Source: an uncultured bacterium
GTDB lineage: Bacteria > Babelota > Babeliae > Babelales > Babelaceae
NCBI GenBank assembly: GCA_963848965.1
Contig: CAWKFG010000004.1
Coordinates: 640,001-704,000 of the forward strand
Length of the DNA: 64,000 nucleotides
Reading direction: 5' to 3'
Made by a program: the position numbers and the translations under genes. Each line of letters begins with the position of its first letter. Within the stretch, counting starts at the first letter, position 1. A model generated the notes under the pieces. That model saw nothing but the letters and a program-made list of their open reading frames with translations, searched no databases and was not told where the DNA came from. This document shows positions 507 through 58,945 of this stretch, in pieces.

Positions 507-3230
507 TTATTTAGAGAGAAAAGATGCGAATACTTTATAGGCTTTCGTCATTTCTTCGCGAAGCTCTAAACTTATAGGTTGACTCATAAGGAACTTAAAA
601 ATAGAACGCTTCGCATCATAGAGCGCTCTATGTAACGGAGTCAAACCACAAGCATCTTGTTCTTCTAGTGAAGCACCACATTTGACAAGATACTTTACTA
701 TCTTCTTTTTACCTGTACCTACTGCTTCATGTAAAGGGGTACTCCCCTTACTATTTTTATAATTTACATCTGCGCCAAGCATAATTATACGCTGTACTAA
801 GGATATGTCTACGATACTACATATTAAAAGCGTGTCTCCATAGCAGTCTTCACTATTAATAAACTGAAAAAACAAAGACCCAAAAAAGCTTGTAAGTGAA
901 TCTGTATCTTTCATAAGTAACTTTAATCTTGCAGAAACAGGCAAATAAAAAATAAGGAGATTAAATAGACTCTGATGGTCCTCCTGTGTTTGCTTGCTCA
1001 GCATTTCTACTGCTTTAATGAGTTTGTCTGTCTCTAAAGTAAGACAATATATTTTTTCACCAAGTCCTGTTACTCTTTCTTCAACGTTACCTTGTGCTTT
1101 TTCAATCAACAAATATGCTAAACGTTCATGTACTTTTGGTATAGCTAACCTTAAACTGCCTTTTTGTCTTTTATATTGTACTACTTCAGAACTTTTTTCA
1201 TTAAAGATCTTAAGTAAATCCTCATCGTTCTGTGCAAGCTCAAGGGCGGTATAACCTCTGTTATTGCATATATTTGCTGTAGCACCAGCTTCGAGCAGAA
1301 GTCTTATTATATTTTTATTTTTTAAATAAACTGCATAATGTAGAGGTGTATCACTACTCAGTTTATTAACACTATTTACAGAAGCATTGTATTGCAACAA
1401 AAGCCTTACCATATCTTCATTATCACGAACAATCGCTTCTCCGATAGGATAATCAGATTTTCCAGAGAACCCATCAGCAGAAGCCCCTTTTTCTAAAAGG
1501 AGCTTTACTATCGGTATACTACCCTTTGAAACAGCCATACCAAAAAATGGAAAAGAGCTTTCTTTCATTATAGCTATCCCTTTCATCTCACTTAATAAAA
1601 ATTGGAGCAAAGACACGTCATTCTTGACAATCGTTTGCTGAAGCATCTGTTCAACTAATTGTTTACACTCTGCCAGATCTGCTCCATACTCTATAAGTAA
1701 CTGTATAATAGTTTTATTGCCTGCGCGTAACGCATAAGAAAGAGGTGAATATCCTTCTCTGCTTTGTACATTAACCTGTGCACCAGAAGCCAAGAAAAGC
1801 TTTACTAAAAACTCATTACCACTAATAACTGCATGACATAAAGGATTTTCTTCATTTTCACTTAATCCTTGAGTAAGTGCCCCTTTTTCAAGCAATAATT
1901 GGCTAAGCTTGTTATTTTCGTAAGCAATTGCAGAAAGAAGAGGAGAATAACCATCTTCATCAAGTACATTTGGGGTTGCTCCGCTCTCAAGTAACAAATG
2001 TGCTATCTCCTCTTGATTAAATTCTATTGCTCTATGAAGTACACTACGGCCACCGACAGTGCGAGCTTCTATATCTTCTCCATGTCGTATAAGCCATTGA
2101 ATAGCTTCTTTATTGCCAAACTGAGCAGCTATATGAAGAGCTGTGATATTACCCAGTTTTTGAGCATTCTCATCATCACTTACAAGAAAATTTTTAAATG
2201 TAGGATCAAAGAGCGTATAAAAATAAGAATCATGAGCAGCAATAGCTAAGTAAAACTTTATGATTGGTAAAAACTTATCATACCATCTACACGTTTTAAG
2301 AAATGTAATAAAAACAGTAATTTGCGCAAGATTCAGAGAACTGGACGAAAGAATTTTTACTGCAATTTTTTGTGCCACAGAAAATTCTTTAATATGCTCA
2401 GTAAAAAAATTAAATTCCAGATTTGAGTTTTTAAAAAAACTATCATGCTCAAGAGCCACCTCTAATACAGTTGCTCCCTTGTTATTGATATTTGTTACAC
2501 GTGTTTCTTGAGCAATAAGAACTTTCATTACCTCCCAGGAGCCAGCAAGCGCTGCATAATGCAAAGGAGATGATCCTTGAGCATCAGAAGTCATGGTAGT
2601 TCTCTTAAATGACAAAAGAAATTGCGTTAACTCTTTATTGTTAAGGTAAGCCGCTATATGTAAAAGCGTTATATCTTCGTTTGAATATCCTATTTCATTA
2701 GTTACCCTTCTAAACGCACCCCTTAGCTCAACTGAATCAACATGCTCAAAGAATACTTTACTTTTTATTCGTGTAGTGGGCCCTTTTATATCTTGATAAG
2801 ACAACACCTGATTACACATAAGAGAAATAAATTTCAGATGTTTTAGAGAAACGCTTGTTTCTTTTTCAGTTGTAAGTAAGCAATTTCGAAGAACCTGACT
2901 TTTATCATGAGCAGATAGCTTACTAAAAATAATATACAAAGCAATCATCACAAAAACATCATCTTTTATTTCGATAGGTAATCTTTCTAAATGTTCGAAA
3001 CTTTTGTCAAATTCTACAGAGGGTATACCAGAAACTTTTAATGCGTTTTCTTTCAAAAAAGGTGTGGTATATGTCTGTGCAAGAGCATGTATAAGATACG
3101 TTCTTAAAGAAGTCCTGTTGTGTTCAAAGTGAATAAGTTCTTCAGGAGATTCATTTTGTAAAGGAACTGATACTTCCATAGCCCAGAGAGAACTTCCTAA
3201 AAATATAAAAAATACTTTTATGTTTAACAT
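507..3230 (-). CDS. Secreted ankyrin-repeat protein (907 aa)
   Basis: Many ANK motifs (TLLHIAA, SPLHYAA, TALHIAA, TPLHYAV, TPLHEAV); N-terminal signal peptide ending SLWA-ME. Confidence 0.92.
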   Translation of the reverse strand: MLNIKVFFIFLGSSLWAMEVSVPLQNESPEELIHFEHNRTSLRTYLIHALAQTYTTPFLKENALKVSGIPSVEFDKSFEHLERLPIEIKDDVFVMIALYIIFSKLSAHDKSQVLRNCLLTTEKETSVSLKHLKFISLMCNQVLSYQDIKGPTTRIKSKVFFEHVDSVELRGAFRRVTNEIGYSNEDITLLHIAAYLNNKELTQFLLSFKRTTMTSDAQGSSPLHYAALAGSWEVMKVLIAQETRVTNINNKGATVLEVALEHDSFFKNSNLEFNFFTEHIKEFSVAQKIAVKILSSSSLNLAQITVFITFLKTCRWYDKFLPIIKFYLAIAAHDSYFYTLFDPTFKNFLVSDDENAQKLGNITALHIAAQFGNKEAIQWLIRHGEDIEARTVGGRSVLHRAIEFNQEEIAHLLLESGATPNVLDEDGYSPLLSAIAYENNKLSQLLLEKGALTQGLSENEENPLCHAVISGNEFLVKLFLASGAQVNVQSREGYSPLSYALRAGNKTIIQLLIEYGADLAECKQLVEQMLQQTIVKNDVSLLQFLLSEMKGIAIMKESSFPFFGMAVSKGSIPIVKLLLEKGASADGFSGKSDYPIGEAIVRDNEDMVRLLLQYNASVNSVNKLSSDTPLHYAVYLKNKNIIRLLLEAGATANICNNRGYTALELAQNDEDLLKIFNEKSSEVVQYKRQKGSLRLAIPKVHERLAYLLIEKAQGNVEERVTGLGEKIYCLTLETDKLIKAVEMLSKQTQEDHQSLFNLLIFYLPVSARLKLLMKDTDSLTSFFGSLFFQFINSEDCYGDTLLICSIVDISLVQRIIMLGADVNYKNSKGSTPLHEAVGTGKKKIVKYLVKCGASLEEQDACGLTPLHRALYDAKRSIFKFLMSQPISLELREEMTKAYKVFASFLSK

Positions 3231-5308: not shown

Positions 5309-5350
5309 TACTCTCTCCTCATGCTTCTTGTGTACTACATGCCTATGTTA

Positions 5351-6628: not shown

Positions 6629-6631
6629 GCT

Positions 6632-11742: not shown

Positions 11743-12636
11743 ATGTACTATATATTACTTTTTTTTACTCTTTTGGCACATATGGCACTTCAAGGCATGG
11801 AGCAGGAGCAAGGAATCAAAGGCTTTTTGAGTTTATTGTCTCCAGATTTAAAATCTGAACTTACAAAATACGCTGATACCAAGGTAGACCTTTTACCTAA
11901 AGAGCTTCAAGCAGAACTTGTTCAGTTCCTTGTGGGACGGGCTGCCCAACCATTTGTTAAGCTGGATTGGCAAGAGCTTATAGAACTTGCGCGTAATCTT
12001 AAACCCATTTTCTTGCAAGCAACAGATGCAAAGAAGATTGATCAGATTTTTTCCCAAGCGGGTTTTGGAATGCCTGAGAAAGGTAAAATCGCTGGTTCAG
12101 TAAAGTATGATATATATGGTGCTTATTTGATCGCTTCTGTTTTAAATATACCTGCAGTAACTGCGTGGTTAAAAGATCAATTGAAAAAGAGTGCAGAATG
12201 GACATGGAACGCGCAAAGCGTACTCGTAGATATCGTACGTGAACTGGGCAAGTTAAAGCAGGAAGGAGTAAAGGGGACAGTTCTTTCAGAAAAACAAAAA
12301 GAGCTTGTATCAACTTTAGAAAATAGTATAAAAACCCTCCTTGCACTAGGCGTCAATGTTAATAGTTATCATTCTCCACTGTACCCAGTTTCTCCCTTGG
12401 CAGCGGCAGCAGGTACTGCTGACTTTGAAACCGTACGTCTTTTAGTAAATCACGGTGCAAATGTAAATTATCATTATATACGAGAATCTGGGGTATCAAG
12501 ATATGACAGAGGACCTACTCCCTTAGAAACAGCCTTAATGGGTCAGCATGATGCAAGACAAAATCATCAAGAAGAGCTTGTAAAAAAGTTTGACGAAATC
12601 ATTAAGTACTTAAAGAGTAAAGGGGCTGTCGAATAA
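11743..12636 (+). CDS. Secreted protein with N-terminal F-box-like motifs and C-terminal ankyrin repeats
   Basis: Signal peptide ending ALQG-ME; LLPKELQAELVQFL; ANK repeats SPLAAAA..VRLLVNHGANVN and TPLETAL; AAGGAG RBS. Confidence 0.75.
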   Translation: MYYILLFFTLLAHMALQGMEQEQGIKGFLSLLSPDLKSELTKYADTKVDLLPKELQAELVQFLVGRAAQPFVKLDWQELIELARNLKPIFLQATDAKKIDQIFSQAGFGMPEKGKIAGSVKYDIYGAYLIASVLNIPAVTAWLKDQLKKSAEWTWNAQSVLVDIVRELGKLKQEGVKGTVLSEKQKELVSTLENSIKTLLALGVNVNSYHSPLYPVSPLAAAAGTADFETVRLLVNHGANVNYHYIRESGVSRYDRGPTPLETALMGQHDARQNHQEELVKKFDEIIKYLKSKGAVE

Positions 12637-12782: not shown

Positions 12783-14558
12783 TTAGGCTGTTTTCTCTTT
12801 ACTTACAATAAAGCCTTTAACTATAAGCTGCAATAGAATAGCATTATCGTCTGTTTGTGCAATCTTTTTAATAAGGTCTATGCCTGGCCGCGCTCCTGCT
12901 TGTATAAGTCTATGAGCTAGTTCCTTATTTTCTTTCTTTAAAGCATAAGCAAGTGCTGATTTACCTTCTGCATCACAAATATTGATTGCTCTTTCTGCCT
13001 TTTCTAATTCTTGTTTAAGAGCAGCTTGTTTTACAGGATTTGTCTCTTGCTTTAAGAGAGTACTTATATCTTTTATTTTTCTTTCATAGGCTTGAGCAAG
13101 AAGTTGTACAGCATCTTTATGACCATACATAATAGCATATATTAACGCTGTACGACCCTGAGGATCTTGAGCATTAAGATACCATAATGGTATATCTACT
13201 CTTAGCAGCTGTTCTAATGCTTCTTTATGTCCAAGCATACTCGCCCACATTAGTACTGTCATATGAAAGCAGTGCGTATGATCACCCGTTTCTTTTTGTA
13301 GCAAATAGTGTGTTGAAGGGTTAACCTGACACAATCTGATGTATTTACTCTTTTCAAAACAATGCTCTCTATGCCATTGTGCATAAGATACCGGTTCACT
13401 TCTATAAAGATCTAGTACCGGTAGACTATAACAAGCGTTTAAAAGTAGTCGACTTTCTGCTGGAAGAGCACCAAAGCGCGGTACTCTATTCATATCATCA
13501 CGTGTAAACTTTGCTGAGTGCTTAAGAAGTAAAGCTACAACCTCTGGATCTGATGCTTGCATTAAAGCAGTTTCCATAGAAGCAGAATTGTCGCGCATAT
13601 TAACATCAGCTCCTGCCTCTATAAGCATTTCTGCCATTTGTCTAGATCCTTTACTTGCAGCAACCATTAAAGCACTTCTACCATTCTTATCCTGAATATC
13701 AACACGAGCACCACGAGTTATAAGTATCTTAGCTACTTGCTGATGACCATGTCTTACTGCCAGCTCTAAAGCACTAGTTCCAAATTCATCTTGAGCATTA
13801 ACATTTGCTCCTGCAGCTATTAGTAGCTCTGCGAGCTCTTCAAATCCCTTATCTCCTCCTTTTAGAATATCATGCTCTTTAAGACTATAACTTGCTGCTT
13901 CCATTAATGCAGGATCACCCTTACTACTTTGAGCATTAACATCAGCACCATGAGCTAGGAGTAATTTTACCACTTTTTTAAATCCATACCTTGTAGCAAT
14001 TCTTAAAGGTGATTCGCCATTACGATCTTCCACATTAACAAGGGCACCTGCCTTAAGAAGTATCTTTGTTATTTCTTCATCACCATCCCACATTGCAAAT
14101 AGTACAGCAGTTTGCCCATCACTATGAGCTTGTATGTTAACGTCTGCCTTTTGCTCTATCAATATATTTATTACTTCTTTATAGACACCCTTAGCACAAT
14201 ATTTCACCATAGATCTTACGGCATATATCAAAGCGGTCCAGCCATAAGTATCTTGAGCATTAACATGAGCACCGTGGGCTATAAGGAGCCTTACCAGCTC
14301 TTTGTGCCCCTTTTTTGCAGCTAGCAGAAGAGCAGTGCGTCCTTTATCATCAGATACCTCAATAGCAGCTCCTTTTTCTAAAAGCCTTAGAACTTCAATG
14401 CAATCTCCCCTTTGAGCAGTTTCTAATAAAGCTTTATCACTGCTATTTTCTCTTTTAACTCTCTTAGCTTGTATCTTTTCATCTTCGTACTCTCTTTTCA
14501 TTGCCTCTGTAGAGAGAAAGACACTTATACAACACAATGCAAAAAACACTTTATACAT
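12783..14558 (-). CDS. Secreted ankyrin-repeat protein (591 aa)
   Basis: Canonical ANK repeats (GRTALLLAA, GWTALIYAV, GESPLRIA, GRSALMVAA); signal peptide ending STEA-MKR. Confidence 0.93.
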   Translation of the reverse strand: MYKVFFALCCISVFLSTEAMKREYEDEKIQAKRVKRENSSDKALLETAQRGDCIEVLRLLEKGAAIEVSDDKGRTALLLAAKKGHKELVRLLIAHGAHVNAQDTYGWTALIYAVRSMVKYCAKGVYKEVINILIEQKADVNIQAHSDGQTAVLFAMWDGDEEITKILLKAGALVNVEDRNGESPLRIATRYGFKKVVKLLLAHGADVNAQSSKGDPALMEAASYSLKEHDILKGGDKGFEELAELLIAAGANVNAQDEFGTSALELAVRHGHQQVAKILITRGARVDIQDKNGRSALMVAASKGSRQMAEMLIEAGADVNMRDNSASMETALMQASDPEVVALLLKHSAKFTRDDMNRVPRFGALPAESRLLLNACYSLPVLDLYRSEPVSYAQWHREHCFEKSKYIRLCQVNPSTHYLLQKETGDHTHCFHMTVLMWASMLGHKEALEQLLRVDIPLWYLNAQDPQGRTALIYAIMYGHKDAVQLLAQAYERKIKDISTLLKQETNPVKQAALKQELEKAERAINICDAEGKSALAYALKKENKELAHRLIQAGARPGIDLIKKIAQTDDNAILLQLIVKGFIVSKEKTA

Positions 14559-17377: not shown

Positions 17378-18619
17378 TTAAATCTCTGGAGAAGCATTAC
17401 AAGCTTTTGACTGTAAAAGAAGTTGCATAATTTGCGATGTACTATTTCCCAATACTTCTAATGCTTCTCGGATATCAGATCTAATAACTTCAGCGGCTCG
17501 ACGAGTATGAGTAGGAGGTACCAAAGAAATTTTTGCACCTGCTTGTATCAATCTTTGAATTATTCTCTTATCTCTTATCTTTACTGCTTCTATAAGAGCA
17601 TCTCCCTGTTTTACGTTTACTTGTGCTCCCGCTTTTATAAGCTCATCAACAACGTACAAATGCCCGCCTTTTATTGCAGCACACAAAACATATCCTTCAT
17701 GCACTTTGCCAACATAATTAATATCTGCGCCAGCTGTAATAAGCAGCTTTACTGCATTTATATGTCCTCGAGAAGCTGCATGCGTAACAGCACTTATATA
17801 ATCGTGTGAGATCCCATTCGGATTTGCTCCATAATCAAGTAATTTTTGTATAACTTCAACGGAACCTCCACGTGCTGCATATGCAAGAGCTTGGTTATGC
17901 GAGTCTCTAACATCAACACCCTTTTTAATAAGCCTTTCTACAAGGTCAACATCACCTAGTAAAGCAGCATAATTAAGAAACGTTTCTTCTTCGTCTTGTG
18001 GAATCTCTTTAATACGATCCATAAATAGTTTTACAAGCTCCTTATATCCTTTAAAGGCAGCTCTACCAATAGCAGTCCAATGCTCTGTATCTGTAACATT
18101 AAGTAAAGCACCTGCTTCTAAAAGAGCCAAAGCTGTCTCTAAATATCCATATTGAGCAGCTTCTATAAGAGCAAGCGAAAGTTCTCTTTTATTAACTTGT
18201 TTTCCATATGCTTGTATAAGCATTAAAACAATTTCAGTATATCCACGAGCAGCTGCATAGAGCAAAGCAGTAAACCTATTATTTTTAGCATCTATGGTAG
18301 CATGTCGTTCTAAAAGCAAAGAAACAAGGGCCTTATGTCCATAGCGTGCAGCAACCATTAAAGGTGTATCGTTATCACTATTAAGACTATCAACAGATAT
18401 ACCGGTATCAAGCATTTTCTGCACTTCTTCAACATTGCCCTGCACAATTCTTTTAAATAGTTTATCTTGAAGAGCTATATACCGTTGATAGTATACAGAG
18501 CGTACTCTATCATAATCCGAATCTTCACCTGAATCTTCATCGCTTGAATACTCCATACAAATACTAGAGAAACAAATAGTTATTACTAATAAAAAAGCAA
18601 GAAATTGTTTTGAATTCAT
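17378..18619 (-). CDS. Secreted ankyrin-repeat protein, N-terminal half of a frameshift-split gene
   Basis: Signal peptide ending SSIC-ME, acidic tract, ANK repeats (DTPLMVAA, FTALLYAA, QALAYAA). Confidence 0.85.
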   Translation of the reverse strand: MNSKQFLAFLLVITICFSSICMEYSSDEDSGEDSDYDRVRSVYYQRYIALQDKLFKRIVQGNVEEVQKMLDTGISVDSLNSDNDTPLMVAARYGHKALVSLLLERHATIDAKNNRFTALLYAAARGYTEIVLMLIQAYGKQVNKRELSLALIEAAQYGYLETALALLEAGALLNVTDTEHWTAIGRAAFKGYKELVKLFMDRIKEIPQDEEETFLNYAALLGDVDLVERLIKKGVDVRDSHNQALAYAARGGSVEVIQKLLDYGANPNGISHDYISAVTHAASRGHINAVKLLITAGADINYVGKVHEGYVLCAAIKGGHLYVVDELIKAGAQVNVKQGDALIEAVKIRDKRIIQRLIQAGAKISLVPPTHTRRAAEVIRSDIREALEVLGNSTSQIMQLLLQSKACNASPEI

Positions 18620-41300: not shown

Positions 41301-42858
41301 ACTCTTTTGGTGCGTCTTTTATAGCAGTCGCCAACTCATTGCTATACAATACGACATCTATTTTTATCTCTGCTCCTTTGTTGAGTAGTATCTCAACTAT
41401 TTCTCTATGATTTTTCTTTGAAGCATAATCTAAGGCAGTTGTACTTCTACCCAAGTGATCTTTTGAACGTACTTGAGCTCCTTTTTGTAAGAGTAATGTT
41501 ACAAGCTCTTTATTTCCTTTCACGGCTGCACACATCAAAGGTGTTTTACCACTAGAATCTTTCATGTTAACATGTGCGCCTCTTGCAAGAAGCTTTTCAG
41601 CTAAAACAGCTCGACCACCCATAACCGCTGCTAGCAAAGCTATATTCAAAAGAGTTTTATCGCCAGGTTGAGAATTGAGTATAGCACCCACTGGTAGTGA
41701 ACAATATAATCTTTGTTCTATAGTACCATTGCTAGCACAATCTTTTTCATTAAAATTTTTATCTAATTTTAATAACTTTTCTACAAGTGCTATACGGCCC
41801 TCCTGCGCAGCTCCAACTACTGCAAGTGCTAACGCTAGTCTTTTATGAGAACTTCTTTGTATAATAGTATAGATAAAGTCTTCAGATCCCCATTTTGCAA
41901 TTTCTGTAAGCACAGTAGTACGAATATCATAATTTTCGTTCATATAATCTGCACCGCGCTCTATAAGAAATTGTGCAACCTCTTTATGTCCATTTAAAGC
42001 AGCACAGAGAAGAGCAGGTTCACCAAAAATCTCTGTGCCATTAACTTTTGCTCTGTTTTCTACAAGAAACTTTACTGCTTCAAGATTACCAGTTTCAGCA
42101 ACTCTCATGAGCGCAGTTTTATTATTATAACATGTACGTTCCCAATAAGAAGTATTACACTGTAAAAGAGATATAATTGCTCCTTTACATCCAGCTTTTA
42201 TAGCCTCTTCTAAAAGAGCATAGAACTGTTCAAAGTTAATTTCTATTTGTAAAAAACTATTTTTCTTATGCGTTTCTGCTTCTTTTGAACTTCTTTCTAA
42301 AAGCAGAATAACTACTGTATAGTGATTATTTTTTAATGCCAACTCAAGAGCGGTATCACCTTCAGTATCGCGGGTGGTACTATCTGCACCAAGATCCAAC
42401 AGCTTCTCTACTAATTTTATTTTTCCTCCTGCAGCAGCTTTAAGTAAAGCAGTGCCTAAAGCTTGTTTTTTATTTTTACTGCTCTTTATAAAAGCAAGCA
42501 CAAGGTCTTCATAACCATTATAAGCAGCAGCACTCAGCGCAGTATCTCCAGTTTTATTACATAACGCACTATTTGCACCTTTTTCTTTAAGAAAAAATGC
42601 TGTTTCGCACTGGCCTGCTTTTATAGCAAAAAGCAACGGAGTATTGCCTTCCTCATCTTGACTATTTATGTCAGCACCTATAGCAGTAAGCCTCTTTATC
42701 TGCTCAATATCTCCTTCTTTTGCAGCATTTCTTATGTGTTTGTGTATTTCCTTGAATGGATCATCAAGTTTAAATACCTTAAAGACCTTAGGAGGTCTAT
42801 TCATACTAGAGGCAGGGAAAGCACAAAGGAGTGGGAGAAGGATTAAAAAATATACCAT
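38341..42858 (-). CDS. Large secreted ankyrin-repeat protein (~1505 aa)
   Basis: Dozens of ANK repeats; ATG 42858 gives signal peptide MVYFLILLPLLCAFPASS-MN. Confidence 0.92.
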   Translation of the reverse strand: MVYFLILLPLLCAFPASSMNRPPKVFKVFKLDDPFKEIHKHIRNAAKEGDIEQIKRLTAIGADINSQDEEGNTPLLFAIKAGQCETAFFLKEKGANSALCNKTGDTALSAAAYNGYEDLVLAFIKSSKNKKQALGTALLKAAAGGKIKLVEKLLDLGADSTTRDTEGDTALELALKNNHYTVVILLLERSSKEAETHKKNSFLQIEINFEQFYALLEEAIKAGCKGAIISLLQCNTSYWERTCYNNKTALMRVAETGNLEAVKFLVENRAKVNGTEIFGEPALLCAALNGHKEVAQFLIERGADYMNENYDIRTTVLTEIAKWGSEDFIYTIIQRSSHKRLALALAVVGAAQEGRIALVEKLLKLDKNFNEKDCASNGTIEQRLYCSLPVGAILNSQPGDKTLLNIALLAAVMGGRAVLAEKLLARGAHVNMKDSSGKTPLMCAAVKGNKELVTLLLQKGAQVRSKDHLGRSTTALDYASKKNHREIVEILLNKGAEIKIDVVLYSNELATAIKDAPKESRELIVHHIITLSDDYKKQCLLSLVKYDCLEAAALLLELAEDKELVKIINCDVKKLHKLLFVAVQGSCKKVVELLLHRGADSNAIDAAGITALMYAAQGSSIEVVDMLIKHGAHVNATDKKGNTPLFYAARHGHKEVAILLVEHGAAIDCQNSKKDTALIVALRTNHLQVAAVLVEKGANVNVQGTSTPLLLAAAGGYYDIVRMLCDRGADSNAKTESRYSTVLASAAENGHKDVVELLLKGGADVNICNSLGETSLFCAAEHGHEDVVETLFAHGADVTAKNYWNRSPLSCAVNNNHARVVEVFLKNRVAIDVQSELGKKALHLAAQYGCPEAVKLLMDQGISVRAYGNVPLLEAIKRNDEELVEVLVHQRDPIAIDSKDDCALLKEAINKNFNSIVRKIIEHSVDKASTLYYVFSHAMSSRNTAFLETVIADGLVQKLSDNILVQIFMKAVERGYKELVVLLLKNGINVHNRCCASALTEAVYYGFKEIVLLLLDAGVDSTIRDEKGKTLLMYAALRGHNEIARLLIARGADINAQCNDRNTALLYAAFYGHKEVVETLLAHKADSTIRNQAGFTALMQAVHNGHEAIVLMLLHSERESKINNRQDVAALITALKPLKLDRMNILFGLIEKLENEHDKRAALKALFLQACTVGKISIIKELSDTHIDMNNTVDSNGSTGLMLAAESGHYEAVQMFLEREVSLHTRDNYQRTAIMLAACQGQTQVVELLLKHLPVGTVITAFKAAISNNQIETAIHLIAQDSIEARIFLKREENNSCCTAVEDKLVTIKGRIAVLSKEKASTLVHLYERYEHLLELLKLLQAKDMQAYLANPLHYIPHANSRPQKNTKNQTVLMWASMVGHSEVVKLFLQMAVLQCSINAQDCLGRTALMYATLYGHTEVARLLTRYCDNGIHLKDNKGNTALCYAVSIGDEALVSALFGQGARPIARAIKLAAEQDNLKILRALLFLASERAKEANQGIVPYLL

Positions 42859-46200: not shown

Positions 46201-48286
46201 ATTCGTTATTCTGTTTTGCTGCATATTCAAGTGCTTGAGACAAATAAAAACTATGAAAATTATCGTGCTCAAGTAAAAGTGTAATTACATCGATATTACC
46301 ACCTTCTATTGCATATTCAAGTACAGTCTTACCTTGTTTATCAGTAACATCACAATGCCTATCTTGAGTAAAATAGTATTTAATAAGTGGTATATCTGCT
46401 TTAGCACACGCTTGAATAAAAGCTTCATCAACATCTTTCATTTGATTAACTTTATCTTCTAATAGTTTTTCAATAGTGCTGTACCCTTTTGTTTTTGCTA
46501 TTGTAAGCACATCACTATTATTAGTAGAGACGAAAGGTGATGCTCCTTTATCTAATAAAAGCTTTGAAATATCAGTATGCCCCTTTTGTACAGCATACCA
46601 TAACAGCAAATTCAGCCCACTATCTTTATCTGCCCATTCAGTAAGCAAAAGCCTTACTACTTCGGTATGCCCATTATGTACTGCTTTATCAAGAGCAGAC
46701 TTCTTTACATCTGATGGTATCTCTTCTTTATTTTCAAGTAACAGTTTAACTATATCTGCATGACCACCAGCTGCAGCGACGATGAGAGGACTTCTGTATC
46801 GTTCGTCCCTTACATTAATTATCATATTCTGCTTAAGCAATTGCTGAACCAAAGAATAGTCTCCTTGAGCACTTGCTTCAACAAACTCTGTTTGCTGCTT
46901 TTCCTGTTTAACTTGAGCCTCTTCTACGAGCTTCACTATCTCCTTATAGCCTCTTTTCTCTGCTTTCCTAAGAGCATAACTGCAATGTATAACAGCTTGA
47001 TTACAAAGATTTGTTTGAAGGAGGAGCTCCACCATATCCTTATGCCCTGCTTTTATAGCAATCTCTAAAGCATTATAGGTACGGGAACCAGCTTGATCTA
47101 GATAAACCTTTGCTCCAAGTCCTAATAACTTTTTTGCAAGAGTGAGATTGTTTCTAGAAGCAGCTCCGAGAAGAGCACACGTATAAGCTTTTTTCTTATC
47201 AAGAGCCTTTTCACATAAGAGATCTAATAAATCACTACGATCTAATTCAGCAAGAGCTGTAAGAGGCGCTGCATTTTTTTGAAGAAATTTACTTTTACAA
47301 GAATATAACAATTCATCTGTTATATAGGGTAACAAGAGAGGAATAAGATTCGTATGCTCTTGTCTAACTGCTTCTACAAAAGCTTCTGCTATACTATGCT
47401 GATTTCTATTGTTTACGTGAGAAAGAAACTCTTTTACCCAACGCTCTCTATTATGTTTTGCAGCAATAACAAGAGGAGCTCTTACCTGACTCTTTTTAGA
47501 ATGCCATAATGCACCTCGTTCTAGAAGAAACTGCACAGTATCATCATGGCCTCCTTCAAGAGCAGCTGTTAACGGCAGACGATAGCCTGTAGTATGGCTA
47601 TTAATATCAGCTTTATTTTGCAAAAGCACTTCAATAAGAGTAGTATGTCCAAAATAAGCAGCTCCTATCAGCGGGCTTACAAAAAACCTTTTTAGTGTAG
47701 AATCATCTTCAACAATGCTTGAGATACTTGTTAAAAACGCACCTTTGGCTGCATAATCTACATCTGCCCCTTGTTCTATAAGAAACTGCGCTATCTCTTT
47801 ATGTCCACATACACATGCTACTATAAGAGCTTGTGAAATAATCCACTCTTTGATCTCTGAACTTTTGCTGTAAATAGTTTTCACAAGCTCACTATCACCT
47901 ATTTCTACAGCGTACGTAAGTGCAGTATTATTAAAGCTATCTTTCTCATCTATCTGTGAATTCTCACTGTTAATAATCTTTAGAGCAAGCTCTTTATTCT
48001 TCTGCCTGAGCGCCTCTATAAGTGGTGTTGTTTGACCTTGAGAAAGAACTGCTTTCTGTCTCTTTTTAGGAAGCTTTTGGCTCTTCTGCTTTGTATCCTT
48101 GTTTTTTATTGCAGCTTTTTTACGCTTTGTTCCGTTTGCACGAGGTATAGGATCTACAACATGTTCAGGCTCTGCATCAGAAGAAGAGCTATACTGTTGA
48201 CTGGTTTCTTCATAAGTCCTTTTCATACAGCAAAGCTCTTCTACGCAAAAGCCTATACCTAGTACTATAAACAGTAGTAATTTCAT
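43214..48286 (-). CDS. Giant secreted ankyrin-repeat protein, paralog A (1690 aa)
   Basis: Signal peptide ending ELCC-MKR, basic tract, ANK array, C-terminus IRILFKLKDLPAIFK. Confidence 0.93.
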   Translation of the reverse strand: MKLLLFIVLGIGFCVEELCCMKRTYEETSQQYSSSSDAEPEHVVDPIPRANGTKRKKAAIKNKDTKQKSQKLPKKRQKAVLSQGQTTPLIEALRQKNKELALKIINSENSQIDEKDSFNNTALTYAVEIGDSELVKTIYSKSSEIKEWIISQALIVACVCGHKEIAQFLIEQGADVDYAAKGAFLTSISSIVEDDSTLKRFFVSPLIGAAYFGHTTLIEVLLQNKADINSHTTGYRLPLTAALEGGHDDTVQFLLERGALWHSKKSQVRAPLVIAAKHNRERWVKEFLSHVNNRNQHSIAEAFVEAVRQEHTNLIPLLLPYITDELLYSCKSKFLQKNAAPLTALAELDRSDLLDLLCEKALDKKKAYTCALLGAASRNNLTLAKKLLGLGAKVYLDQAGSRTYNALEIAIKAGHKDMVELLLQTNLCNQAVIHCSYALRKAEKRGYKEIVKLVEEAQVKQEKQQTEFVEASAQGDYSLVQQLLKQNMIINVRDERYRSPLIVAAAGGHADIVKLLLENKEEIPSDVKKSALDKAVHNGHTEVVRLLLTEWADKDSGLNLLLWYAVQKGHTDISKLLLDKGASPFVSTNNSDVLTIAKTKGYSTIEKLLEDKVNQMKDVDEAFIQACAKADIPLIKYYFTQDRHCDVTDKQGKTVLEYAIEGGNIDVITLLLEHDNFHSFYLSQALEYAAKQNNESLVEFIVSKCDSNKLKQLDLRRAIQHAAAWGNEILVTKFMKISNKKQSEQIEIHAHALRGAISKNNVSLVKRMINDKKKVWQLLYTSEHAENNPLFMATDAGSLELVQFFLEKGCPHTMHSSEGDVNALIFAGDGGNLDVIRLLLEKGLAIDLKTSKGQSALSQAARVGHKEAVQLLLQKGAKNSDGDALYAAVSEGHEEIVLMLIQAHETRQQALDAALDYAVRLKKSSFLIKTLLAQGARSDRTITAADPQRKVPLLMKALEDTSWEIVEALLDAGAQPAGKDSAGQDCFALAKKIGCEERFTSLVEITGQRKMDRQKAFFEAAVQGDISKVRTLLQGVNILAASEQGKTGLMHAIESGNKELIELLLKAGSFVNNRTKNGSCLDVAVRTGNIEIVKVLLDAGASIDRITIGTAVKEEHEEMIKLLINRSAHTQEARNNATLFAAHLGKLKLLQLFLAQGGSVNDQTLRDKRTPLMLAAEKGHEACVKTLLEAGADVTLQDAHNYTALFYAKKNGHETIVHMLEEMLSGKYQKQQALLEAAARGDATAVEDLIRQGTDRNAQDAQKRTSLMRAVINEHIPVVELLLKYGVDINLWDRKSETALSLAAKKADETLVKLLLTASDKIAESTLQAAIRVAAFRGIHKVVPLLVDVHLNRQFALSLALHEAIKGKQKALIEQLITLGADVNDIVEDRTSLMTAVCGNAPDIIKILLSHGALITKKNPVNYTVFDYAVRICALESFALLAGSKDMSTEFLNLESLKTKLQHELGKLLMNSRAQGPNNFMQSLAKERHEELLFLIKLLDTGELQSYLIEKEQLCADYLKTYKEGKRTRNLLLQTPLMLACIFGHAKVVRQFIESDMPQWFINAQDIYGRTALHYAILYGHTECVQILLKWYMQDSERIAELYKDDLEAQKKALALSGINLSDTQGNTALFYAVTKGNLNLINDLLKANARLSTDKRKAALALKIAAAQGRSDIVIRILFKLKDLPAIFK

Positions 48287-51300: not shown

Positions 51301-53607
51301 ATTACTAGTAAGCGTACCACATTTGCCCAGTATAAATGTTACTAAAGGCTCATTACCCTTTTCTATTGCAAGCTTCAACCCACGATAGATCTTTTGTTTA
51401 TGTACTTTATGCTTTAACAAGAGCTCTATTACCTCTTTGTGCTCATATTCTGCTGCTAGCTCGCAAGCTGTTCTATTATTTTCATCACACGCATCACCAT
51501 CAATATCTTGCGTAAGATACTGCTGTATTGTTGGCATATCTGCTTCTGCACATGCTTTAAGAAATGCTCCTTCAACTTCTTTAACTTTAAGAAGCTTTTC
51601 TTTAAGAAATGCGACAAGGGCTGCATGGCCCTTCTCTTGTGCCCACGCAAGAGCATCTTTTCCATTTGTGTCTTTAAGCGTAAGAGAGGCTCCTTTGGAT
51701 TCTAGAAGCCGCACTACTTCTTCATGTCCATTTATCACCGCATGAATTAATGGAGTAAAATTAGTGTACATTCCTGTTTGTACATACGTCCTTTGAGGAC
51801 TATATGGCATAGGAACTGGTACACCATATGGCGATATTCCATCCTTAGCTACCATAAAGGCATACCCATTATTAGAATTTGTATTTAGCTTAGTATCCCG
51901 AACATTACTATCAGCTCCTGCTTGAATAAGAAGCTCTACTATTTGAGCATGCCCATTCTGTGCAGCAAGTAAAAGAGCTCCATTGATATTTACAGCATCC
52001 TTTTCAGTTTCAAGCAATAGTTTAACTATTTCTTTATTTCCATTACCTGCAGCAAGCATTAAAGGGTTCTTACCTTGTTTATCTTTTATATCAATACCTA
52101 CTTTTTGACTAATTAGCTGATGCACTAAGGCGTCATCTCCAGTAGAGCTTGCTTCAAGCAACTTTTGTTGTCGCTCTTGTTGCTGAGCAATCCCCTCTTC
52201 AAGCACCTTTGCTAGCTCTTCATCTCCTTTTTCTCGTGCACGCGAAATACTATATGTACAATTCTGAATATCTTCAATGTGCGCACCAGCTTGAAGAAGT
52301 AGTTTTATCATATCTACATTTTTTATATCTATAGCTTTTGAAAGAGGAACATCATGATAGGAGTACCTACCTTGAACCTTCTCGTACCCATTAACATTTG
52401 CTCCTCGTTTTATGAGTTTTTCTGCAAGTACTTTATTGTTAGCAGAAACAGCACCTATTAATGCATAGGTATATGCCTTATTTTTATCAAGAGCTTTTTC
52501 AAATAAGAGTTCAAGAATGTCTTCTTTTCCTAGTTCACCGAGAAATGTAAGAGCTGCTGGTGAGTTTCTAGGACGAGCACCTTGTACAGTCATATAAAGC
52601 ATCTCATCAGTTATATGTGGCATCAAAGTATCTGTAAGATGCATATGTTTATATCTAATACATTCAACAAGAGCTCGTATAATATCTCTTTGGTTTTTAT
52701 TTTTCTGATGTGGTAAAAACTCTTGCACCCAACGATCGCGATTATACATTGCTGCAACTATAAGAGGGGCCTTTACTTGATTATTTTTTGGTAGAATATG
52801 CGCTCCACGTTTAAGAAGAAGCTCTACAAGATCATCATGTCCACTTTCAAGAGCAGCTGTTAAAGGAACACGCTGACCCTGACCGTTAATGTTAATGTCT
52901 GCATTTTTGTTAAGCAGTAATTCAACAATAGCAAGGTGCCCAAAATAAGCAGCAACTAACAATGGGCTTGTGATAGACATTCTAAATTTACTAACACTTT
53001 CCTCATCAATAGCGTAAATACCTGAGAGGAACAATCCTTTTTCGCAGAAATCAACATCAGCTCTGTGTGTTATAAGAAACTCTGCTATATCTTTGTGGCC
53101 ACAAGCACAAGCTACTATAAGTGCTCTTGAAATTGTAGACCCTGAAAGAATTTTATCATATACAAGCTTTACAAGCTCAATGTCACCAGTTTCTGCAGCA
53201 TATACTAAAGCCGTATTTTCAAATGCATCAGCAGCAGAAACATCAACGCCACTTTCTACAAGAGCTGTAACTTCCTCTCTATTTTTATCTTTTACCATTT
53301 TCATTAAAGGAGTAACTGTAGCATCTTTAGCAGGAAATCGTACGTTCTTAGATTTTTTTCGAGAAGGCTTTTTAACTTTAGCAGAGGATTTTTTACCTTT
53401 TTCTTTTACCTTATCTCGCGTTCGCTTTTTACCTCGCTGCTGCTTTACTGGCTCTTCGCTTGGCGAGTCACTCACCTCATCAGCTTGTTCCATTTCTCTA
53501 TCAGAGGTATCATGCTCTTCGCTTTCTTCCGATAACTTTCGTTTCATACCTACTATGGTTTCTGTACATAAACCAACAAATAACGTTACTAATAATAATT
53601 TTTTCAT
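48316..53607 (-). CDS. Giant secreted ankyrin-repeat protein, paralog B (~1763 aa)
   Basis: ATG 53607 (AAGGA RBS) gives MKKLLLVTLFVGLCTETIVG-MKRK; ANK array; C-terminus IRILFKLKDLPAIFK. Confidence 0.93.
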   Translation of the reverse strand: MKKLLLVTLFVGLCTETIVGMKRKLSEESEEHDTSDREMEQADEVSDSPSEEPVKQQRGKKRTRDKVKEKGKKSSAKVKKPSRKKSKNVRFPAKDATVTPLMKMVKDKNREEVTALVESGVDVSAADAFENTALVYAAETGDIELVKLVYDKILSGSTISRALIVACACGHKDIAEFLITHRADVDFCEKGLFLSGIYAIDEESVSKFRMSITSPLLVAAYFGHLAIVELLLNKNADININGQGQRVPLTAALESGHDDLVELLLKRGAHILPKNNQVKAPLIVAAMYNRDRWVQEFLPHQKNKNQRDIIRALVECIRYKHMHLTDTLMPHITDEMLYMTVQGARPRNSPAALTFLGELGKEDILELLFEKALDKNKAYTYALIGAVSANNKVLAEKLIKRGANVNGYEKVQGRYSYHDVPLSKAIDIKNVDMIKLLLQAGAHIEDIQNCTYSISRAREKGDEELAKVLEEGIAQQQERQQKLLEASSTGDDALVHQLISQKVGIDIKDKQGKNPLMLAAGNGNKEIVKLLLETEKDAVNINGALLLAAQNGHAQIVELLIQAGADSNVRDTKLNTNSNNGYAFMVAKDGISPYGVPVPMPYSPQRTYVQTGMYTNFTPLIHAVINGHEEVVRLLESKGASLTLKDTNGKDALAWAQEKGHAALVAFLKEKLLKVKEVEGAFLKACAEADMPTIQQYLTQDIDGDACDENNRTACELAAEYEHKEVIELLLKHKVHKQKIYRGLKLAIEKGNEPLVTFILGKCGTLTSNNMRPFVETAVTSGNEKMVQLIIKLVKGAHDKATLREYALCTAVRAKNVSLVHKLLSGIAGSWDSLFRSQEVDKNPLFIAARVGSLELVDLFLEKGCSLTVPHYSAVYPRLPVSPVLRAPAVKDPKMTVLMSAAQGGHTDVIERLLKEGINIDDVTSTGDSALTYAAQAGHRAAVELLINKGAKNIHTALTEAVKGGHEDIVQFLIDISPTRQNILDAAFITSVMHRKHASVLRKLLLQGVRLETRMREGKTILMLAIERGYWDIVQFLLDVGANPSTKDARGQDCFTLAKSKGWEDTLSKIIATVSDKKAARQKALLQAAAKGDTASVQELILQGADIQQTDEQGKTVLMYAVTSGSRELVELVARSGELVNIRTKNGISALSIATQRENEAIVNALLRAGAQVDAKSIGMAVSQGNQRILQLLIHDSQDQQQARNWALDATAAFNKHELMMLLLNQGAHINARSPQNRTPLMMAAGKGHEKCVELLLDARADATLQDDEKLDALAYARKNGHETIVRMLEEALSDKYQKQRALFEAAKQGDRELVQDLLIQGVDKDAHDAQGRTALMHAVAHGHKEVIELLVREGANINLIDKGGSDTALSLAVEKADSTLVQLLIAFPDKVTAQTLERALQIAALQGLDEIVKALLAVHTDTVQAASLALHAAVSGQKKALVEQLIDVKADVNSVVEERTPLMRAASVNTTDMIKLLLAHKAAINYRNNRGFTAFDSATEAGSLEALALLMGSENPSFELVVAGQQIFKIQLQQKIGEHLIASKKQGLGGFLEFLIKQNYEEMLLFIHLLGVPDIKVYLKDKASFCSEYIRVYLEEEKCARNEFLQTPFMWACMFGHADIVQQFIESAMPQWFINAQDAYGRTALHYAILYGHTECVQLLLKWYTVDNERIKELHKNNEEALKKVLALSGINLSDNQGNTALFYAITKGDLKLVNELLKINARLSTDERKAALALKIAAAQGWSDIVIRILFKLKDLPAIFK

Positions 53608-56600: not shown

Positions 56601-58945
56601 TTTTTATCATTAAGTATTTTCTTTACGAAAGCAACATTACGAGCTTTAATTGAAGCATATAAAGCACGTTCTGTAAGACCTCGCTTATACCACCTATCAG
56701 AAGTCTGCTTAATAAACAGATTCACTATCCCTGCGTGGCCATGAGCTGCAGCACTATCCACAGCATCTGCAAGAGTATCCATTGATAGCTTATTCTTATA
56801 GGCATTAAGAAGAAGTTTTACCATATTCTCATCACCTTTTGCAGCTACAAGCTTTAATGCCTTTGAAAGATTGCGTTCATGAGCATCATTTTCTAATAAG
56901 AGAGCTACTATATTAGTATGTTTGTGCTCTACAGCAAGCTCGAGTCCTGTTTTTCCTTGCTCATCTACTATCTCACTATTTATTGGATCGCCAAATAAGC
57001 GTGTTACTTCCTCTTTATTTCCTTGAGTACATGCATCTAAAAAAGTAGCATGAGCTTTTTTATCTTCAGCAGCTTTTGCTTCAAGTAGTGCTTCAATTGT
57101 CTTATTCCCTTTTTCTTTTGCCCACGTTAAAGCACTTTTGCCACGTATATCTTGAAGCAGCGTATCAGCTTTATAAGCCAATAAAAGCTTTGTTGTTTCT
57201 TCATGACCATTAATCACTGCATGAATCAAAGGAGTAAAGTTACATGATTCCCTTCCAGAGGAGTTCCAAGGCTCTGGCTTCCAGTCTCTGGCATTCACGT
57301 CAGCTCCTGCATTAAGAAGGATTTTTACAATATCTGTATGACCTTGAGCTGCAGCAAGCATAAGGCTCTTATTCAAGTAGTGTCTGTTTTCTAAGTAGTA
57401 ACTACTTTTGCCTTCAAGTAACATGGTAACTATTTCTGCACGTCCATTCTTTGTAGCAATCATTAAAGGTGTTCTATGTTGAGCATCCATTATAGTAGCG
57501 TCTGCTCCTTGTTTAAGCAGTTCTTGTACTGCAACACCATCACCCTTTGTACAGCTTTCAAAAAGCTCTTCAGTCTTTGCTCTGGCATTTTCAAGAAGAG
57601 CTAGTACCTCTTTATGGCCTTTTGCTCTTGCAAGATCAAAAACATTCTCCCAACTTGGACCTACATTCACTTTTGCTCCAGCCTGCAAAAGAAATGTTAC
57701 CATATCTGTATGTCCAGCTCTTACTGCTTCTCTTAAGGGGGAATCATCATAGCCGCTAACATGTGCGCCACGCTCTATAAGCTTTTCTGCAAGTATCTTA
57801 TTATTGACTGCAGCAGCTCCTGCAAGAGCACATGTACATGCTTGAGTTTTATTAGTAGCCTTATTCATAAGTACGTCAAGAAGCTCTTCATTTCCTAATC
57901 GAGCAACTTCTTTAATAAGCGAGCTTGAACCAAGTTGATAGAGCATACCATCAGTTATAGAGGGCATAAAAATGTCGAGAAGGCTTTTATGTCCTTGCTC
58001 AAGAGCAGTTATAAATCCATTAATAATATCTCCTGGATTTACGTTTTTTGATCTTGAAAGAATCTTTTTAACCCATTTTTCGCGGTTATACCGCGCTGCA
58101 ACAACAAGAGCAGCTTCTATTTTACCTGTTCCTTCAACACGAGCACCTGCCTCTAACAAATATTCTATAATATCATCATTTCCACGCTCAAGAGCAACAA
58201 GTAATGGAGTAAAATTACCTGTACGACGAAGGTCAGTATTTGCTCTATGTTCTAATAACAATTTGACAAGGGCTTTATGTCCATAATAAGCAGCAAGCAA
58301 TAAAGGATATACTTGACACTTTCCAAATCTTTTCATGCTTTCTGCATCAATGCTTTCAATATATGTAAGGAAAAATCCTCCTTCTAAGCAATCTACACGA
58401 GCTTTGTTGGCTATAAGGAATTCTGCTATCTCTTTATGTCCGCAAGCAGCTGCTACAACCAAAGCTTTGTCTGATGATTTTTTTGCCAAAGGACTTTTAT
58501 CATACACTAATTTTACAAGATCTAAGTCCCCAGTCTCTACAGCGTATATCAAGGCTGTATTTTTAAATTTATCAACAATATCTGCATGAGTTCCGCTGTC
58601 AAAAATACTTCTTACTTGCTCTGTATTTTTGTCTTTTATCGCTTTTATTAAAGGAGTTGTAGCAGTACCTTTAGTAGGCGATGAAGCTTTTTTAGATCTC
58701 TTTTTAGAAGGCTTTTCTATCTTTTCAACTGCATTGCTATTTTTTGATTTATCTCGGGTTCTTTTCGCACTTTGTTGTAAAGGTTTATCGTCTGAAGAAT
58801 CACCTGATCCGCTCTTTTGGTCAATTTCCATATCAGAGGCTTGATCTCTTTGCTCTTCACTTTCTTCTGAACGGCTGCGCTTCATGCAAAGTATATCCCC
58901 TACAAAGAAGCCTATAAGTAATGGTAGCAATAATAACTTTTTCAT
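53687..58945 (-). CDS. Giant secreted ankyrin-repeat protein, paralog C (1752 aa)
   Basis: Signal peptide ending DILC-MKR; ANK array; C-terminus IRILFYLKEQPAIFK. Confidence 0.93.
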   Translation of the reverse strand: MKKLLLLPLLIGFFVGDILCMKRSRSEESEEQRDQASDMEIDQKSGSGDSSDDKPLQQSAKRTRDKSKNSNAVEKIEKPSKKRSKKASSPTKGTATTPLIKAIKDKNTEQVRSIFDSGTHADIVDKFKNTALIYAVETGDLDLVKLVYDKSPLAKKSSDKALVVAAACGHKEIAEFLIANKARVDCLEGGFFLTYIESIDAESMKRFGKCQVYPLLLAAYYGHKALVKLLLEHRANTDLRRTGNFTPLLVALERGNDDIIEYLLEAGARVEGTGKIEAALVVAARYNREKWVKKILSRSKNVNPGDIINGFITALEQGHKSLLDIFMPSITDGMLYQLGSSSLIKEVARLGNEELLDVLMNKATNKTQACTCALAGAAAVNNKILAEKLIERGAHVSGYDDSPLREAVRAGHTDMVTFLLQAGAKVNVGPSWENVFDLARAKGHKEVLALLENARAKTEELFESCTKGDGVAVQELLKQGADATIMDAQHRTPLMIATKNGRAEIVTMLLEGKSSYYLENRHYLNKSLMLAAAQGHTDIVKILLNAGADVNARDWKPEPWNSSGRESCNFTPLIHAVINGHEETTKLLLAYKADTLLQDIRGKSALTWAKEKGNKTIEALLEAKAAEDKKAHATFLDACTQGNKEEVTRLFGDPINSEIVDEQGKTGLELAVEHKHTNIVALLLENDAHERNLSKALKLVAAKGDENMVKLLLNAYKNKLSMDTLADAVDSAAAHGHAGIVNLFIKQTSDRWYKRGLTERALYASIKARNVAFVKKILNDKKGKYWIDFYQSTYNNPLLIATYAGSLELVEFFLEKGCPLTVFSEDKASGVSSFIGSETQVQPHMNALMLAAQEGHIHLVEFLLAKGIPINTSNKEGETALSVTASVGRKDVLQLLLDKGAQSTSKALENAVQAGKKEIVQLLISKGASITSKVLSAAVQGGHEEILQILIDANRERPAVLSTAFFAAVATGKLMLVKKLHAQVPHLELKEAKTERTALMLALGAKKWDVAAFLLEAGANPYAKDGKGLDAFAYAKNSGYEEKFMASVREIEQRKAELRKEVAQKRAALENHFLQAAAQGDVAKVKKFITQGVNAQCVDSSGINALMYAAASGNRELVELLITQAGLSINGQSKDSMTALSFAVERGHEELVKYLINAGSHINIVAISKAVRQDNGPLLRLLIQKSEDEQQACNLALCYATECNKPAIITSLLKLRADVNTRSLYQRTPLIIAAMRGYDDCARVLLDGRADVTLKDDKGVDALSYAKTNGNEAIVRMLEEALSEKYQMQQAFLEASVQGNLSEVKELLAQGVDKNVQDRQGKTALMHAVTNEHNEVVELLLREGAQIAIRNLAGNTALSIATQKAHTALVKLLLAFPDRLPTVILKPALDSASYEGHSEIVSLLINAHPNKAHACAIALTTAVGGQKKELVKQLIELGADVNVAYGDTPLMVATTNNDTEMVKLLLSHGAHVNKRNAHNISSLTRAVAVLGLESFAILIGASPNVPDLINNDADIQNKIHSRLDSYLEESRINGSDYKEALKRLKLEEIALLLRIVKKSFPGYVKKDYFENKDAYCTEYIKVYKEQGKCTRNGLLQTPLIWACMFGHAHIVQQFIESEMPRWFINAQDVYGRTALHYAILYGHTECVQTLLKWYTQEVERINEVYKDNPEALKKALDCLGINLTDSQGNTALFYAIIKGNLNLVNELFKLNAKLATSETKAALALKIAAVQGYSDVVIRILFYLKEQPAIFK

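Follow-up and report, generated by a model that had tools for sequence, protein, structure and literature searches.

Eleven predicted signal peptides in the window are followed by Met

The stretch of DNA analysed here (the window; 64,000 nucleotides, positions 640,001 to 704,000 of contig CAWKFG010000004.1) comes from an uncultured bacterium of the Babelaceae and encodes eleven proteins with a Met directly after a predicted signal peptide. An earlier, sequence-only reading of the window had quoted eleven such N-termini, and all 11 were found in the sequence, with the starts given below. Each begins with ATG and has a hydrophobic leader of 17-21 residues that ends in Ala, Gly, Ser or Cys and is followed by Met at residue 18-22 and then by Glu, Lys or Asn. 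Because Met makes up 1.7% of residues, 11 of 11 is beyond chance. An AGG-type ribosome-binding site precedes the first ATG in all 11 genes. In the genes starting at 42858 and 53607, the longest open reading frame (ORF) opens at an upstream TTG (42906 and 53637, respectively), and the AGG-type site precedes the ATG instead.

Eight of the 11 products are strong ankyrin proteins (Pfam Ank_2, E 1e-47 to 1e-179), all encoded on the minus strand. With the predicted cut marked by a slash and the second interval covering the signal peptide plus the Met codon, they are a 907-residue protein (507-3230; signal peptide of 17 residues and Met18, 3177..3230, SLWA/ME), a 591-residue protein (12783-14558; Met20, 14499..14558, STEA/MK), a 413-residue protein (17378-18619; Met22, 18554..18619, SSIC/ME), a 717-residue protein (36166-38319; Met19, 38263..38319, LSYG/ME), a protein of about 1505 residues (38341-42858; Met19, 42802..42858, PASS/MN), a 1690-residue protein (43214-48286; Met21, 48224..48286, ELCC/MK), a protein of about 1763 residues (48316-53607; Met21, 53545..53607, TIVG/MK) and a 1752-residue protein (53687-58945; Met21, 58883..58945, DILC/MK). 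Directly downstream of the leader-bearing gene 17378-18619 lies another ankyrin gene (16446-17354, minus strand; Ank_2, E 2e-18). It is leaderless, starts with TTG and may be a truncated or separately started copy.

The remaining three genes are on the plus strand. One encodes a 297-residue protein with a weak ankyrin match (11743-12636; signal peptide and Met19 codon, 11743..11799, ALQG/ME); a collection of 5.8 billion proteins held no homologue of it but itself, and its Met is untraceable there. The other two encode small Thr/Gly-rich proteins without a family, of 140 residues (23833-24255; Met21, 23833..23895, AVQA/MN) and 62 residues (24334-24522; Met21, 24334..24396, ALQA/ME).

The sequence-only reading also held that other exported proteins lack the Met. 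Inside the window this stands: the exported MutS-like protein (MutS_V) at 3224..5308 on the minus strand has a leader without a following Met (PLFG/YDG), and the proteins at 5351-6628, 6632-9562, 35011-36159, 59132-60550, 61748-62953 and 63027-63800 likewise lack it. It fails elsewhere in the genome, where longer MutS-like paralogues carry the Met. These MutS-like proteins form an exported family with MutS domains III and V (3224-5308 and 28998-31052 in the window, both on the minus strand, and paralogues in the rest of the genome); a mismatch-type DNA ATPase outside the cytoplasm is odd.

Met is enriched at the first mature position across the genome

The genome around the window (labelled G000) is 1.73 Mb in 5 contigs, with a G+C content of 37% and a completeness of 88.7%; the genomes of its relatives are about 1 Mb in size. 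We analysed the entire genome as a set of 1574 non-overlapping ORFs of at least 60 residues. The ORFs of the 9.5-kb contig C3 have N-termini identical to those of ORFs at C1:389653-391685; this contig is probably a duplicated or alternatively assembled copy of C1:389-392 kb, and a few counts thus hold duplicates.

Under a loose definition of a carrier, a hydrophobic N-terminus followed by [ASGCT]-Met, the pattern was found in 308 of the 1574 ORFs (20%). A predictor that places the cleavage site from the hydrophobic core and the -1 and -3 residues only, ignoring the first mature residue (+1), returned 518 signal peptides, of which 150 (29%) had Met at +1 against a background of 1.7%, a 17-fold enrichment. 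No other residue was enriched more than 1.6-fold at +1, and Gln stood there in 25 of the 518. The strict motif ([ASGC]-M-[EQDNK] after a hydrophobic N-terminus) occurred in 228 of 834 hydrophobic N-termini, with a composition-normalised score of 16.4 for Met and a median of 0.52 for the other residues. Among 704 ORFs with a hydrophobic N-terminus, Met accounted for 6.2-8.8% at residues 19-22 versus about 2-3% nearby, and ORFs without such an N-terminus had no Met peak at residues 19-22. Carriers made up 13-50% in each 100-kb bin having at least 20 hydrophobic N-termini.

When 338 leaders were aligned on the Met, the sequence logo was Lys-rich after the start Met and rich in Leu, Ile and Phe from -15 to -7. 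At the junction, the logo had L/I/S/T/A/V at -3, Y/F/L at -2 and A/S/G at -1 (68%), followed by Met, E (38%) or Q/K, K/P/Q/R, and E; the consensus reads [L/I/T/V]-[Y/Q/F]-[A/S/G] before the cut and M-[E/Q/K]-[K/P/R/Q]-[E/D/A] after it. Residues -3 to -1 were alike in Met and non-Met signal peptides. The claim that the Met sits directly after the predicted cleavage site was thus borne out, both by a position that matches the (-3,-1) rule and by the 150 of 518 cases from a predictor blind to +1. The Met class was also tested for a lipobox: Cys was not seen at +1, which is Met, and -2 is mostly Y, Q or F, not A or S. Typical lipoboxes sit on other proteins of this genome, such as an OmpA-family protein (LLVPAC/K).

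Translation begins at the upstream ATG

A Shine-Dalgarno-like 4-mer was found 4-18 nt before the first start in 74% of the Met set and in 72% of the other signal-peptide genes. Before the internal ATG it was found in 3.3%, a lower share than the 18% before Met codons picked at random deep inside genes, and G was enriched at -11 to -7 ahead of the first start, not ahead of the internal ATG. This ribosome-binding-site check speaks against the earlier suggestion that the internal ATG could be an alternative start giving a cytoplasmic isoform.

We also searched the DNA itself with a proxy (ATGAAR, 42-57 bases, KSN-ATG-SAR) that represents a Met-Lys start, 14-19 codons, and a small residue followed by Met and Glu or Gln. 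The proxy gave 83 matches in G000, 67 of them in frame. Controls with other codons in place of the ATG gave 25-57 matches despite two to four times as many codon choices, about a third or fewer of them in frame. Taken together, the Shine-Dalgarno data and the in-frame matches show that the leaders are translated, beginning at the upstream ATG, and that the internal ATG is not a second start driven by a ribosome-binding site.

The Met marks ankyrin and other effector-like proteins, not envelope proteins

A local profile search found 141 ankyrin proteins in G000. Of these, 121 have a hydrophobic leader, and the Met is present in 109 of the 121. The rule is not limited to ankyrin or low-complexity proteins, to which the sequence-only reading had tied it, since 199 of the 308 loose carriers are non-ankyrin. 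An all-against-all BLAST search, run on non-ankyrin proteins only, sorted the 186 non-ankyrin carriers of at least 110 residues into 145 components, 105 of them singletons. Because there are 145 components, single ancestry cannot account for the pattern, and one ancestral gene as its source was ruled out.

Pfam families were assigned in a subset of 464 kb (the window plus 20 loci), to non-ankyrin proteins of at least 100 residues without later membrane segments. Among the 34 carriers so scanned, 21 had no family; the other 13 included DnaJ, zf-C2H2, WD40, pyridine-nucleotide oxidoreductase, DUF1653, DUF6829, CPT-like kinase, PLD and ADP-ribosylglycohydrolase proteins, weak ankyrin matches and a weak HSP20 match. 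The same regions held 61 non-carriers, a few of which are cytoplasmic enzymes wrongly taken in by the heuristic. They include the envelope types SBP_bac_3, OEP/TolC, TamB, YfiO/BamD, NamZ and multicopper oxidase, together with three WD40 proteins, Macro, AAA, MutS-like and DUF2608 proteins and several hydrolases.

Family searches over the whole genome identified 15 envelope proteins, namely two Omp85, one OmpA, three secretins, four SBP_bac_3, one peptidase S41 and four Trypsin_2. The Met was absent in 14 of the 15, and the remaining one, an Omp85 protein (YSC/MLFT), is ambiguous and does not show the Met-polar motif. The genome-wide comparison of effector-like with envelope housekeeping proteins thus gave a strong enrichment of Met at +1 in the effector-like proteins. 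Most members of the Met class are ankyrin or other eukaryote-like proteins or fast-evolving ORFans, and envelope housekeeping proteins are excluded from it.

Mature N-termini and processing machinery

The residue after the Met in carriers was E in 45%, Q in 14% and K in 10%, with D (3%) and N (4%) at or below background, while residue 2 of the cytoplasmic proteins of G000 was K in 16%, S in 9%, I in 9% and E in 7%. A hydrophobic residue directly followed the Met in 3%; non-Met signal peptides had one at the corresponding position in 22%. Over its first 20 residues, the mature protein was more hydrophilic and polar-rich in the Met class (p ~1e-11), and further in no difference in hydropathy was seen. 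In the 150 predicted cases, the Met was followed by E in 78, Q in 26, N in 5 and D in 3 (112 of 150 for these four residues) and by K in 20, D and N being below background. An N-terminus of the NatB type is Met followed by Asp, Glu, Asn or Gln. The sequence-only reading had pointed to Met-Glu and Met-Asn as NatB acetylation substrates, an idea that fits in part: 112 of 150 conform, but E and Q vastly outnumber D and N, an excess that NatB specificity would not predict. Separately, G000 encodes a GNAT-family acetyltransferase (weak match, E 4e-5; C4:495730-496554) with a hydrophobic N-terminal leader and no Met; an exported acetyltransferase would be of interest for N-terminal modification.

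Signal peptidase I (LepB) is represented in G000 by one Peptidase_S26 match (C1:323737-324447, E 6.7e-36). G000, G002 and G003 have one LepB and G010, G013, G014 and G004 have two, which does not match the strength of the rule. A dedicated extra signal peptidase was ruled out, as LepB is single in G000, G002 and G003 and the two-copy genomes are not outstanding. Glutaminyl cyclases of either type (PF05096, PF04389) had no match in G000 at its completeness of 88.7%, no M28 peptidase was found there, and no signal-like leader was seen close to the start of its two M24 peptidases. On these grounds, removal of the Met in the bacterium followed by pyroglutamate formation was also rejected.

Three secretin-domain genes lie side by side at C4:764526-774999, and type IV pilin-like leaders (GFTLIELM) are found at C4:625-628 kb, about 12-15 kb upstream of the window. 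The passages of the comparative genome paper on this phylum place a type II system with two gspD copies (duplicated secretins) in its core (PMC4776705), and no type III, IV or VI injection system is reported for the phylum in the parts of the literature consulted.

Orthologues and paralogues

The signal-peptide protein with DUF6829 in G000 (C4:442017-443435) has bacterial homologues at 50-53% identity, and the family also appears under the names of black-yeast fungi (Exophiala, Cladophialophora, Capronia, Fonsecaea) at 30-36% identity; judged from sequence, genes of this family may have passed between eukaryotes and these parasites. In 10 signal-bearing homologues including the G000 copy, the Met stands at the junction in 7 and one residue later in 1. 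The others are 37-53% identical to the G000 copy, and the flanks of the Met vary (ME, ML, MI, MS). The G000 copy has the ancestral Met internally and a second Met-Glu directly after its own signal peptide. The start of one leaderless homologue (P0003) coincides with the Met that its relatives have after their signal peptide, and other leaderless homologues, fungal ones included, begin about 5-33 residues from the same conserved motif.

The MutS-like protein of the window (3224-5308) has 18 database homologues outside G000, all with hydrophobic leaders and none with the Met, which occurs only in two longer paralogues, both within G000. In the alpha/beta-hydrolase-like and TrxB-like paralogue sets, and likewise in ADP-ribosylglycohydrolase, relatives lacking a leader or the Met start at positions that do not align with it. 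The rule is a property of both the protein and the genome: its status is kept within orthologue groups, and its strength varies between genomes. In other genomes, of which some may not be Dependentiae, many leaders of these protein families (P0081, P0083, P0084, P0089 and P0012 among them) end in A/Q or G/Q, a hint that Gln may be preferred at +1 where a lineage or family lacks the Met rule.

The rule across Babeliales

In 100-kb samples taken around Lon from 12 relatives, Met was the top-enriched residue in 6 and gave no signal in the other 6; G043 (0 of 56) and G034 (0 of 58) had no Met signal under the identical pipeline. Because these samples are small and rich in housekeeping genes, the DNA proxy was applied to whole genomes instead. 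Its value is a rough ranking, not a rate, as it varies with the number of exported proteins and with base composition. The median over 151 Babeliales genomes was 20 matches per Mb, with 2.7 for the reversed pattern. G000 had 48 per Mb and ranked 11th of 151, and E. coli K-12 had 8 per Mb. Families f10, f17 and f18 were uniformly high (31-63 per Mb) but for one 64%-complete f17 genome at 25.

Among ankyrin proteins with readable N-termini, the Met was present in 8 of 8 in G002, 5 of 6 in G003, 3 of 3 in G025 and 10 of 13 in G055. Weaker relatives had 4 of 9 (G010), 0 of 1 (G013), 0 of 2 (G015) and 0 of 1 (G016). These sequence comparisons show the same predicted rule across the order Babeliales at very different strength.

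The window contains two further features. Adjacent paralogous ORFs of about 140 residues lie at 15485-15919 and 16004-16426 (both on the minus strand), with the N-termini MKNEYSAGII and MKQEYSAGII, and a 1100-residue protein with a hydrophobic N-terminal segment and a GT4 glycosyltransferase domain at residues 863-983 is encoded at 20412-23714 (plus strand).

Discussion

We consider it highly probable that these are Sec-type leaders of the ordinary sort, removed by the one signal peptidase I of the genome, and that a lineage-specific rule places Met as the first mature residue in one large exported class. The predicted cut leaves a delimited class of proteins with Met-Glx (Met, then Glu or Gln) at the N-terminus, a pattern too widespread and too specific to come from chance or shared ancestry. 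Because Met is the sole invariant residue in more than 100 unrelated families, and because its status is kept per orthologue group, we infer that it is maintained by selection.

The main rival is that the Met is a fossil initiator. A signal-peptide extension would have been added upstream of the ATG in a once cytoplasmic or foreign (eukaryote- or virus-derived) ORF, leaving a Met without present function. The DUF6829 family fits this history, with one leaderless homologue that begins at the aligned Met and others that begin nearby, and so do the eukaryote-like domains of many carriers. We nevertheless regard it as unlikely. The Glu (45%) and Gln (14%) after the Met are unlike residue 2 of cytoplasmic proteins, and the former ribosome-binding site is gone (3.3% Shine-Dalgarno) while the ATG is retained. 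The Met is the sole invariant residue over 145 unrelated components, and it fails to align with leaderless or Met-less starts in the alpha/beta-hydrolase-like, TrxB-like and ADP-ribosylglycohydrolase sets. Within DUF6829 itself, the G000 protein has the ancestral Met inside and a separate Met-Glu after its signal peptide. A second rival is a preference in processing: Met at P1' (with Glx at P2') would be the best substrate of this lineage's signal peptidase I or Sec system and would be selected in abundant, rapidly exported proteins. The one LepB must also cut many non-Met substrates, the 14 clear envelope proteins among them; LepB copy number does not track the rule, and status is set per orthologue group, not per genome. 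This explanation is improbable, even with the Met exactly at P1', standard residues at -3 to -1 and a strength that differs by lineage, as an enzyme preference might.

Two other readings concern the start of translation. Initiation at the internal ATG would yield a leaderless isoform in the bacterial cytoplasm. The depletion of Shine-Dalgarno sequences there (3.3%, as against 18% for random internal Met and 74% for true starts) and the lack of an evident use for cytoplasmic copies of about 300 host-type proteins make it very improbable, in spite of an in-frame ATG in a U-rich, probably unstructured stretch and of one database homologue annotated from that Met. It is scarcely credible that the genes begin at the Met and that the leader is a chance translation of AT-rich upstream DNA. 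Such DNA does yield peptides rich in Phe, Leu, Ile and Lys, but it would not give a leader length so sharply peaked (Met at residues 19-22), a Lys-rich start with a hydrophobic core and small residues at -1 and -3, a Shine-Dalgarno sequence before the upstream ATG, or 67 of 83 proxy matches in frame. Relatives under the same pipeline without any Met signal (G043 and G034) also argue against an ORF-calling artefact.

On the reading that we prefer, signal peptidase I would cut the leader, and the mature protein would begin with Met, usually followed by Glu or Gln and then by a polar stretch of about 20 residues. The Met would thereby fix the identity of the mature N-terminus in proteins destined for the host. 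The N-degron system of eukaryotes treats a Met with a non-hydrophobic second residue as stabilising, and it treats as destabilising those residues that often stand first behind a bacterial signal peptide (K, Q, E, D, L, F, Y). A Met followed by a non-hydrophobic residue would therefore be a stabilising, host-like N-terminus; that hydrophobic residues hardly ever follow the Met is in keeping with this. N-terminal acetylation of Met-Glx by the host is possible, and the Met could equally be read by a second export step across the outer membrane. We tentatively suggest, as a possibility that is still doubtful, that the Met-Glx N-terminus is an address label separating the host-directed secretome from the envelope proteome, with a second-step translocator or vesicle loading, or the host N-terminal machinery (N-degron avoidance, acetylation), as its reader.

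Several observations weigh against a general or strict rule of this kind. Cleavage sites were predicted throughout by crude heuristics of our own. The claim that all effector-like proteins carry the Met went too far, since exported WD40, Macro and MutS-like proteins and 12 ankyrin proteins of G000 lack it; the contrast between effector-like and housekeeping proteins is real, yet the Met is not obligatory for every eukaryote-like exported protein. A Met-class protein takes part in 174 paralogue pairs, of which 89 are Met/Met, 55 include a Met-less leader and 30 a leaderless partner, part of these 85 mixed pairs being heuristic misclassification. The ADP-ribosylglycohydrolase gene is found in 7 of 81 genomes including G000, and its leaders outside G000 are Met-less, with Q, S, A, Y or N in place of the Met in 5 other genomes. 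The ankyrin proteins of G056 mostly have YA/AQE, with the Met in about 1 of the 16 that could be read. The proxy gave fewer than 10 matches per Mb in 16 of the 151 genomes, as in E. coli. A universally required tag would not vary in this way, which tells against universality, and paralogue switching and weak-rule lineages show that the constraint is not absolute. Finally, Ala, Ser, Gly, Thr and Val at +1 are stabilising as well, so that stability in the host alone explains neither the choice of Met nor the large excess of E over D. That Met is used instead of Ala, Ser or Gly, and E/Q instead of D/N, points to a more specific reader, which may be a bacterial export or vesicle-loading factor or a host enzyme.

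The leaders resemble those of classical Sec and signal peptidase I substrates (von Heijne's -3,-1 rule): they are about 20 residues long, start with a positive charge, have a hydrophobic core and carry small residues at -1 and -3, and the genome has a single LepB gene. The classical rule sets no strong constraint at +1, whereas here +1 is Met in at least 29% of predicted signal peptides versus a background of 1.7%. The only other lineage-wide rule known to us that concerns the first residue of mature Sec proteins is the Q-rule of Bacteroidetes. It is the closest published analogue: as described in the relevant passages, Gln stands at +1 of signal peptidase I substrates and is cyclised to pyroglutamate (PMC5837995, PMC10653852), and it covers most of these substrates including periplasmic ones, 59-77% in Porphyromonas (PMC5837995). 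Going by those passages, the two are alike as phylum-level biases at +1 of Sec/signal peptidase I substrates that were found by sequence statistics and for which protection of the N-terminus is proposed. They differ in the residue (Met, not Gln), in that no glutaminyl cyclase was found in the 88.7%-complete genome and no modification of the Met is known or predicted, and in that the Met rule skips envelope housekeeping proteins and marks an effector-like class. The novelty is a set of Sec signal peptides with a lineage- and class-specific rule at +1; the class specificity sets it apart from the Q-rule.

A large signal-bearing ankyrin secretome is also described in the corresponding passages for Chromulinavorax destructans, with signal peptides on 44% of coding sequences and on 78% of ankyrin proteins (PMC6561590), and for Babela massiliensis, with signal peptides on 79 of 126 ankyrin proteins (PMC4378268); G000 resembles both in this respect. 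The passages of these two papers, supplements aside, give no cleavage-site residue rule (PMC4378268, PMC6561590), and the words 'signal' and 'methionine' are absent from the comparative TM6 paper (PMC4776705). No published description of the Met rule was found in the literature searched, the first TM6 genome paper (2013) and supplements being outside its scope. As for the host side, the present case would resemble a precedent in that the residue exposed by removal of a signal peptide sets the fate of a bacterial protein in the eukaryotic cytosol: one study, by its title, reportedly has the N-end rule acting on a secreted bacterial protein in the host cytosol. Unlike that precedent, which concerns single proteins, the rule here would be proteome-wide, and arrival in the host cytosol is presumed.

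Dependentiae are widespread parasites of protists of which almost none has been cultivated, and they encode hundreds of ankyrin and ORFan proteins. The rule would flag a risk of systematic gene-start errors in annotations. Because it can be counted and would split host-directed from housekeeping exports, it may serve as a practical effector predictor, and mutation of the Met would offer a route into the study of secretion in this phylum. If the Met-Glx N-terminus is indeed an address label, the effectors of an entire uncultured phylum could be predicted from a single residue.

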